Positions 13,118-13,269 of a stretch of DNA of 64,000 nucleotides are shown here, piece by piece. How positions within the stretch are numbered: position 1 is the stretch's first letter; every line of letters begins with the position of its first letter. A model generated the notes under the pieces. It was not told the origin of the DNA. It made no database searches and was given only the letters and a program-made list of their open reading frames with translations. This stretch comes from a virus (lineage: Duplodnaviria > Heunggongvirae > Uroviricota > Caudoviricetes). The position numbers were made by a program, and so were the translations under genes. The stretch is taken from positions 101,154 to 165,153 of the IMG/VR virus record IMGVR_UViG_3300021400_002728; one strand, written 5' to 3'.

Positions 13118-13269
13118 GTTGCCGCGCCTTACATGATGGATTCGAACCATCTTCTCATGCTTTAAAGGCACACGACTTTCCAATTGTCCAATGCAGCGCT
13201 TTGAAGGATTCTAACCTTCACCTCTCAGTGCTCTCACTGAGTGTACTTACATTTATACTAAGTGGCAAC
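13118..13269 (-). ncRNA. Nested double tRNA-like RNA; inner unit (13124-13199) has ochre anticodon TTA
   Basis: Inner TGTGC-CT TTA AA-GCATG with D and T arms; outer GTTGCC/GGCAAC stem with own CTCAGTG-AGAG-CACTGAG and GAAGG-TTAGAAT-CCTTC arms. Confidence 0.65.

Follow-up and report, generated by a model that had tools for sequence, protein, structure and literature searches.

A UUA-anticodon tRNA gene in the tRNA array of a standard-code phage: analysis suggests a tRNA look-alike rather than a working stop-codon suppressor

What is the function of a tRNA gene with the ochre anticodon UUA in a phage that ends most of its genes with TAA? Stop-reading tRNA genes recur in giant phages that use the standard code, and their role is puzzling. 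Here the question is raised by one element in the tRNA array of a rumen/gut phage. The window, that is, the whole stretch of 64,000 nucleotides analyzed, corresponds to bases 101154-165153 of a virus record of 394,266 bp, which is complete, has direct terminal repeats, and contains 32% G+C. Positions are those of the window unless another locus is named. The window carries 39 tRNA genes and a transfer-messenger RNA (tmRNA) gene, all on the minus strand between 3.7 and 24 kb, and the UUA tRNA (13126-13197) is one of this array. An earlier note, made from the letters alone, had described it as an ochre-anticodon tRNA nested inside a second tRNA-like fold, and had offered a conditional suppressor or a decoy among its explanations. 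Our analysis suggests that the element is a tRNA look-alike and not a working stop-codon suppressor.

A tRNA body with an unpaired acceptor end

Two registers of the inner tRNA are referred to below.

13126-13197, minus strand: inner tRNA gene with anticodon UUA at 13165-13163 (ARAGORN; Rfam, 42.1 bits)
13124-13199, minus strand: inner tRNA in an extended register, GCGC (13199-13196) pairing with GCGC (13127-13124) while A71 and G72 (13129-13128) are bulged (sequence reading and fold)

ARAGORN called the inner unit as tRNA-Stop(tta), and its score against Rfam RF00005 passes the threshold of the tRNA family (gathering score 29), so that both programs support the D arm, UUA loop, and T arm described in the earlier note. 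The D stem has 3 bp, the variable loop has 4 nt, and the T arm is canonical. The anticodon loop, CUUUAAA, has seven nucleotides with U33, U34-U35-A36 (13165-13163), and a purine, A37, and the bases U8, A14, G18, G19, A21, G53, U54, U55, C56, A58, and C61 are all present by reading. The acceptor end is where the unit departs from a tRNA. Pairing is limited to 3-70 through 7-66, with G.G at 1-72 and C.A at 2-71, and instead of a 7-bp acceptor stem with a free 3' end there are ends that pair with a leader and a trailer. With A71 and G72 bulged, G(-2)C(-1)G1C2 pairs with G73C74G75C76, exactly the 2-nt bulge and GCGC/GCGC extension that had been read earlier. The best reading of the inner unit is a real tRNA-like gene, competent to form the L shape, that is not an ordinary decoder.

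We recovered 87 related loci (740 kb in total, about 1,180 tRNAs) through an RNase H-like gene that lies 2 kb from the element. The closest genome, G001, has 331,944 bp, and its array is locus L002. In the syntenic slot of G001, after the genes for Lys-UUU and Glu-UUC and before the next of the tRNA-shaped "shell" RNAs described below, there is a tRNA with the anticodon UUG (L002, 12535-12606); a canonical tRNA-Gln(UUG) is also encoded by both phages. No second UUA tRNA was found among the approximately 1,180 tRNAs of the 87 loci. A non-conserved anticodon in relatives had been named in the earlier note as a refuting observation, and it was found in the only orthologue recovered. Both 1-72 and 2-71 are unpaired in just two of the 1,085 parsed tRNAs of the phage group, namely these two copies. 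The mismatched bases themselves are different, G.G and C.A here and C.U and U.C in G001, indicating that pairing at these positions is not selected. The Rfam match of the G001 copy is confined to model positions 4-67, and it has its own flanking helix of 12 bp (CUCAAUA/UAUUGAG and ACCUU/AAGGU), which overlaps positions 1-3.

The two tRNAs are 64% identical, compared with 70% for the neighboring Glu-UUC pair, and from reading the sequences about six stem pairs in the anticodon, T, and D stems have changed on both sides with pairing retained. Isotype profiles, run with the anticodon masked and correct for 62 of 69 control tRNAs, gave at best 23 bits for the inner tRNA and 15 bits for the G001 copy, where the median is 46. 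When a covariance model was built from the pair, its two members reached 88-90 bits and no other tRNA exceeded 50 bits, so that no third member was found in the 740 kb of related arrays. Similarly, BLAST of 12900-13500 against 50,697 phage records gave no match, BLAST against the 87 related loci gave matches of T-arm length only, and exact-pattern scans of IMG/VR with the inner anticodon and T arms and with the outer T-like arm found none.

Because the body is kept at 36% divergence while positions 1, 2, 71, and 72 are unpaired, the ends are sequestered, no isotype is recognizable, and base 36 varies, the element is probably selected as a tRNA shape and not as a decoder. The third anticodon base appears unconstrained, A here and G in G001, so the UUA "ochre" anticodon is most likely incidental. 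We therefore tentatively favor a tRNA mimic that does not decode and in which anticodon base 36 can change freely, a reading to which we assign a probability of roughly 45%. The RNA would be a supernumerary tRNA look-alike whose acceptor end is not built to be free and whose ends run into the leader-trailer helix; the features kept would be the tRNA body and the loop CUUURAA (U33, U34, U35, purine 36, A37). Loops of the CUUURAA type belong to tRNA-Lys, -Glu, and -Gln, and genes for those tRNAs adjoin the element, which favors a mimic that would offer a Lys/Glu/Gln-type (U34-U35) anticodon arm together with the elbow to a tRNA-binding factor, presumably without being aminoacylated or entering translation. 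The factor might come from the host, as an anticodon-directed nuclease or a modification enzyme, or from the phage itself, as one of its RNA-repair or Ro60-like proteins. There is precedent for phage tRNAs that act against tRNA-cleaving defenses (PMC10264068, PMC11464382, PMC11555353). Among the options of the earlier note, the decoy, as a candidate role, fits the unpaired acceptor, the missing isotype, and the lack of TAA clients best.

Several points weigh against this interpretation. The word "decoy" stands on anatomy and context only. The anticodon loop is fully canonical, and all bases for tertiary contacts are intact, as they would be in a working tRNA. Orthology with the G001 tRNA is deduced from synteny and shared rare traits in a family of just two members; if the two tRNAs were unrelated, the arguments from the free base 36 and from compensatory changes would both fall. 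In this genome only, one conserved gene has an early in-frame TAG that a UUA anticodon could read. Finally, the ACAGCAA "handle" of the array's other tRNA-mimic RNAs is missing from the element.

The enclosing fold and the tRNA array

The inner tRNA is enclosed by the following features.

13264-13275, minus strand: 5' strand of the closing (leader-trailer) helix, 12 bp, UAAAUAGUUGCC (folds)
13112-13123, minus strand: 3' strand of the closing helix, GGCAACUGUUUA, directly after the inner 3' strand (fold)
13245-13263, minus strand: outer hairpin 1, D-arm-like, ACUUA-9 nt-UAAGU or GUAU-8 nt-GUAC in the style of a tRNA D arm (fold, sequence likeness)
13224-13241, minus strand: outer hairpin 2, 7-bp stem CUCAGUG/CACUGAG with an AGAG tetraloop (fold)
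13203-13219, minus strand: outer hairpin 3, T-arm-like, GAAGG-UUAGAAU-CCUUC, with A in place of C56 (fold, sequence likeness)
13320-13334, minus strand: terminator-like hairpin and U run upstream of the element (consensus scan only)

The nesting also emerges from the minimum-free-energy fold (-48.2 kcal/mol, z = -3.5, and none of 200 shuffles as good). The outer tRNA-like fold of the earlier note, with its tetraloop-capped anticodon arm, is thus recovered, the AGAG cap included, although Rfam does not call the outer fold a tRNA even at E <= 10. Hairpin 2 occupies the place of the anticodon arm and has no 7-nt loop; a contig from an RNA library, 93% identical, carries A13238>G and retains that pair of hairpin 2 as G.U. 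The three hairpins, about 70 nt, follow the 5' strand of the closing helix and precede the inner tRNA. By sequence likeness the outer fold is tRNA-derived: the best local score of its 5' part against tRNAs was 41, whereas shuffles gave 30.5 +/- 2.7. An origin from tRNA-Gly, suspected at first, was dropped as unspecific, as the best matches cover many isotypes.

The closing helix reaches 12 bp once the flanks are included (13275-13264 with 13123-13112). It is the longest helix flanking any of the 39 tRNAs of the window and belongs to the top 2.8% among 952 tRNAs from relatives. With the abutting helices of 4 and 5 bp, 13134-13112 is almost continuously paired (5 + 4 + 12 bp), and taken together this arrangement is unlikely to be due to chance.

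A fold of this kind could also be left by decay. A rearrangement in a rapidly evolving section of the array might have joined two degenerate tRNA genes, one of them Gly-like or generic and the other Glu/Gln-like, leaving a relic without function in which the UUA anticodon and the flanking helix are accidents. This part of the array is indeed its most divergent between this phage and G001 (identity 64-70% here, while most other syntenic tRNAs are at 84-100%), and a relative seen in an RNA library departs from this sequence from about 13286 on. Neither G001, which lacks the three outer hairpins, nor the 740 kb of related arrays has anything that matches the outer fold. The low tool scores (Rfam, 42 bits; no isotype) point the same way, and helices of at least 12 bp occur by chance around about 2.8% of tRNAs. 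However, both orthologues have kept all tertiary bases and every stem except 1-72 and 2-71 at 36% divergence, unlike a dead gene; the near-continuous pairing of 13134-13112 is improbable by chance; and a flanking helix is present independently in G001. We consider a decaying relic unlikely. An error of assembly or sequencing at base 36, with UUG as the true anticodon as in G001, would account for the single G/A by which the two anticodons differ. Such an error is highly improbable, as the tRNAs differ at 36% of their positions, which is not a single-base discrepancy between otherwise identical genes, and the assembly, at 394 kb, is complete and carries terminal repeats.

Other explanations of the nesting were rejected. 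A tRNA intron or split tRNA, whether archaeal-type or group I, was dropped as a reading, as the insert lies between the T arm and the 3' strand and neither a splicing endonuclease (PF01974) nor RtcB nor an Rfam intron match was found; for the same lack of both enzymes the 4-bp GCGC helix between bulges on opposite strands was not read as a bulge-helix-bulge substrate. Ligation of the outer halves after excision of the inner tRNA would, by sequence reasoning, give no tRNA-like junction of acceptor and T arms. Membership in a Y-RNA-like group, in which the closing stem is followed by unpaired ACAGCAA, was dismissed on the absence of the motif, which occurs 13 times on the minus strand and never within 13100-13300. 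The small open reading frames (ORFs) across the element are chance frames.

Contigs of four metatranscriptome runs were compared with 11500-15000; no contig covers the inner tRNA, and this is not evidence either way. In one run, a contig of 151 nt (93% identical, depth about 10) spans 13351-13200 and stops one base before the GCGC register. Its end was not counted as a cut of the RNase P type, because the observation comes from one contig in one study and the end of a contig does not mark the end of an RNA. In another run, contigs match 13286-13431 and no further down, which is a hint of a variable cassette and no more.

The array holds several other tRNA-shaped RNAs that are incapable of decoding. 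Some are Rfam tRNA matches carrying inserts of 52-63 nt, and others are "shells" that consist of acceptor and T arms only. In the window, shells lie at 12848-12992, 12360-12492, and 10448-10560 on the minus strand; in these, an acceptor stem of 7 bp is combined with a T arm directly next to the 3' strand, and the structured cores, of 40-100 nt, are unrelated. Nearby there are genes of an RNA toolkit: an Rnl2-type ligase, an RNase H-like YkuK protein, a DUF2828/TROVE-like protein, Tpt1, a Thg1-like protein, RlaP, and a YhaM-like nuclease. No phage-encoded RNase III that might act on the long helix was found in the genome. Between 11826 and 12133, RNA-library contigs from two studies connect 12133 back to 11826/11827, a junction that corresponds to an end-to-end joined form of a 307-nt RNA and whose depth far exceeds that of the UUA element.

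Unusual tRNA genes also occur in the related loci. L005 13427-13499 and L006 9037-9108 share nearly the same tRNA body, with loops of 8 nt (CUUAUUAA) and 7 nt (CUUGAAC), respectively; the latter is called "Ser-UGA" though it lacks a long variable arm, so that the loop appears to change freely. "Tyr(AUA)" tRNA-like genes with G33 and no isotype match are located at L002 12887-12960 and L003 8325-8397 (loops CGAUAGG and CGAUAAG), and in L002 another element bearing a T arm lies directly upstream of this gene. A tandem U.U at acceptor positions 4-69 and 5-68 is kept in the tRNA-His, -Asn, and -Phe of relatives (e.g., L005 7301-7375 and L004 11551-11625). The tRNA-Gln of relatives is often unpaired at 1-72 (U x U or A x C) with G73, as at L019 16482-16556, L030 11854-11927, L043 13800-13873, and L027 12079-12151. 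A tRNA of the amber-reading type, with anticodon CUA, is found at L034 9088-9162.

Suppression and 5' editing as alternatives

Two further genes are relevant to the alternatives in which the element would decode.

63010-63445, minus strand: candidate client gene for a small membrane protein (scan for early in-frame stops, homologue alignment)
43426-44244, minus strand: Thg1-like 3'-5' nucleotidyltransferase gene, context only (PF04446, 119-121 bits; PF14413, 52.7 bits)

A working suppressor should have clients. Genome-wide stop usage confirmed code 11 and the frequent TAA stops of the earlier note: TAA terminates 305 of 407 long ORFs (75%), and coding coverage under code 11 is 83% (ORFs of at least 100 amino acids), so the genome-wide in-frame stops and low coding density of recoded phages with suppressors are not seen. 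A tblastn comparison in both directions with the entire genome of G001 revealed no in-frame TAA here, and neither did comparison with the proteins of 86 related loci. All same-frame neighbors split by one TAA have a ribosome-binding site together with a start immediately behind the stop. A 4-codon leader followed by TAA before an HD-domain gene (9373) proved spurious, because the true start, MSQKIVESF, is conserved in G001; other short-leader TAA candidates were alternative frames inside longer genes or were intergenic. The pseudo-leader of the HD-domain gene lies in about 180 nt directly 3' of the tmRNA gene (9371-9550, minus strand) that are conserved with L002 (approximately 16370-16560), include GUAGGAGUGAAAGAUAGCAG, and may be a further structured RNA.

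The genome-wide search for in-frame stops, a check proposed together with the original idea, thus yielded no TAA target and a single TAG candidate. In the candidate client gene, AAGGAG and 7 nt precede an ATG (63445-63443), which opens nine codons, TAG (63418-63416), and 133 codons. Six uninterrupted homologues (P0001-P0006, that of G001 and five others) start with MK.L..YNKKKLII and align across the TAG. In G001, for its part, nonsense codons interrupt four conserved genes that are intact in the present phage; there are five of them (30348, 34129, 46227, 46704, and 116240; loci L094-L110), each one transition away from a sense codon (TGG>TGA twice, TGG>TAG, CAA>TAA, and CAG>TAG). They could be real mutations, signs of a hypermutated population, or assembly errors. 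Since G001 carries five nonsense codons without a suppressor, the case for the client gene is weakened.

With this candidate at hand, the element could be viewed as a weak natural ochre/amber suppressor of the T4 psu type, in which a spare UUG tRNA became UUA by a change of G36 to A. It would be cut from the leader-trailer scaffold by RNase P, RNase Z, or RNase III, would read UAA at a low level and UAG by wobble, and could rescue the TAG-interrupted membrane-protein gene. Ochre suppressors read UAG as well, and T4 tRNA genes are known to mutate to suppressors. The cloverleaf, 7-nt loop, U33, and A37 are intact, and the UUG of the sister phage is one transition from UUA. The UUA tRNA and a TAG at codon 10 coincide in this genome only, while the six homologues have the same N-terminus uninterrupted, and a strong AAGGAG site precedes the ATG ahead of the TAG. 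In related phages, many tRNA-Gln genes have G73 and a 1-72 mismatch. Annotations of orphan UUA or CUA tRNAs exist for three jumbo phages with the standard code, phiKp24, G, and XacN1 (PMC8386662, PMC12484599, PMC5852040). Against suppression, two terminal acceptor mismatches should cripple charging and EF-Tu binding, a mismatch at 1-72 being by itself the mark of the bacterial initiator tRNA, and the tRNA body has no isotype match. With TAA ending 75% of genes, read-through would fuse 55 same-frame neighbor pairs, and no client with an in-frame TAA was detected. The five nonsense codons of G001 make a single one look like background, and a TTG two codons past the TAG could allow re-initiation. 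Gene searches of the phage genome found no release factor and neither GluRS nor GlnRS. A general or conditional ochre suppressor, as put forward in the earlier note, is not supported by these results, with the acceptor unpaired in both orthologues, and a weak suppressor of the T4 type is doubtful as well.

A further alternative is editing of the 5' end. Thg1-like proteins rebuild tRNA 5' ends on the 3' strand, including template-dependent repair of 5'-truncated tRNAs (PMC4820378). The mismatched nucleotides 1 and 2 might be removed and the end rebuilt in the 3'-to-5' direction to C1-G72 and U2-A71, giving a chargeable reader of UAA and UAG only where the Thg1-like enzyme is present. In mitochondria, tRNA 5' editing acts on exactly such mismatches in the first acceptor pairs. 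The mismatches are restricted to the first two pairs in both orthologues, within the 1-3 range of editing substrates, and a Thg1-like protein is encoded by both phages (113 bits in G001). The tRNA-His does not need this enzyme, as its G-1 is encoded in the gene. On the other side, the pattern occurs in one tRNA per genome only, no nuclease for the removal step is known in this phage, and the Thg1-like gene is 30 kb distant, in a group of genes for general RNA repair. The edited tRNA would still be without an isotype. We regard editing of this kind as very improbable. The fuller version, in which the frayed 5' end is deliberate and Thg1-like repair after a cut in the helix turns an inert look-alike into an infection-only UAA/UAG reader that completes the TAG-interrupted gene, is to be regarded as an equally long shot. 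If it were true, the element would be a switchable suppressor, and bacterial-type Thg1-like enzymes, whose physiological substrates have long been a matter of question, would gain a first natural one. Taken together, the non-decoding mimic is the interpretation we prefer.

Comparison with known systems

Comparable genes are found in phiKp24 and phage G, both cultured phages, and in XacN1. The annotated genes are tRNA-Sup-TTA in phiKp24, a standard-code jumbo phage (PMC8386662), tRNA Sup:UUA in phage G (PMC12484599), and two CUA tRNAs in XacN1 (PMC5852040). As in the present phage, a stop-reading tRNA gene lies in a large tRNA array of a phage with the standard code and no detectable recoding. 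However, those tRNAs are reported as ordinary and free-standing, whereas the element described here has two unpaired acceptor pairs, no isotype, an enclosing helix with hairpins, and an orthologue with UUG. In recoded phages, suppressor tRNAs turn TAG to Gln and TGA to Trp (bioRxiv 10.1101/2021.08.26.457843; PMC13037316), and TAA recoding has been found in no jumbo phage (PMC13037316). The likeness to them lies in a phage-encoded stop-reading anticodon in gut/rumen jumbo phages, but this genome is not recoded.

In classical suppressor genetics, which was reportedly treated by Eggertsson and Soll in 1988 and, for T4, by McClain in 1970 (both cited in PMC8386662), a single anticodon change is sufficient. 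E. coli supB is tRNA-Gln with UUG changed to UUA, and the T4 psu suppressors are tRNA mutants of the same kind, with one anticodon change each. The same step from G36 to A separates the UUG of G001 from UUA, and such tRNAs read UAA and UAG. They derive from chargeable tRNAs with 7-bp acceptor stems, whereas here the acceptor end argues against function.

The tRNA-like domains of bacterial and phage YrlA and Y RNAs and the shells of the array resemble the element in having a tRNA body, an elbow, and a T arm on a closing helix, and the phage has a TROVE-like gene and an RNA-repair set. Unlike them, the element keeps a complete canonical anticodon arm and is without the ACAGCAA handle. In the neighboring shells the T arm abuts the 3' acceptor strand, while here a whole inner tRNA separates the outer T-like arm from the 3' strand. 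tRNA "introns" in jumbo phages may encode another tRNA (PMC13037316), and this is similar in that one tRNA prediction is nested in another tRNA-like fold; here the insert separates the T arm from the 3' acceptor strand rather than interrupting the anticodon loop, and neither a splicing endonuclease nor RtcB is present. Mitochondrial 5' editing affects many tRNAs, whereas here a single tRNA is concerned, as predicted from the gene sequence. With the substrates of Thg1-like editing (PMC4820378), the element shares encoded mismatches in the first acceptor pairs and a Thg1-like gene in the same genome.

Orphan stop-reading tRNAs in standard-code jumbo phages are thus already known. What is new is a frayed and sequestered acceptor end common to two orthologues, a variable third anticodon base, and a tRNA-derived wrapper. 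The annotation "tRNA-Sup" can conceal a tRNA look-alike, and caution is warranted before each such gene is called a suppressor.

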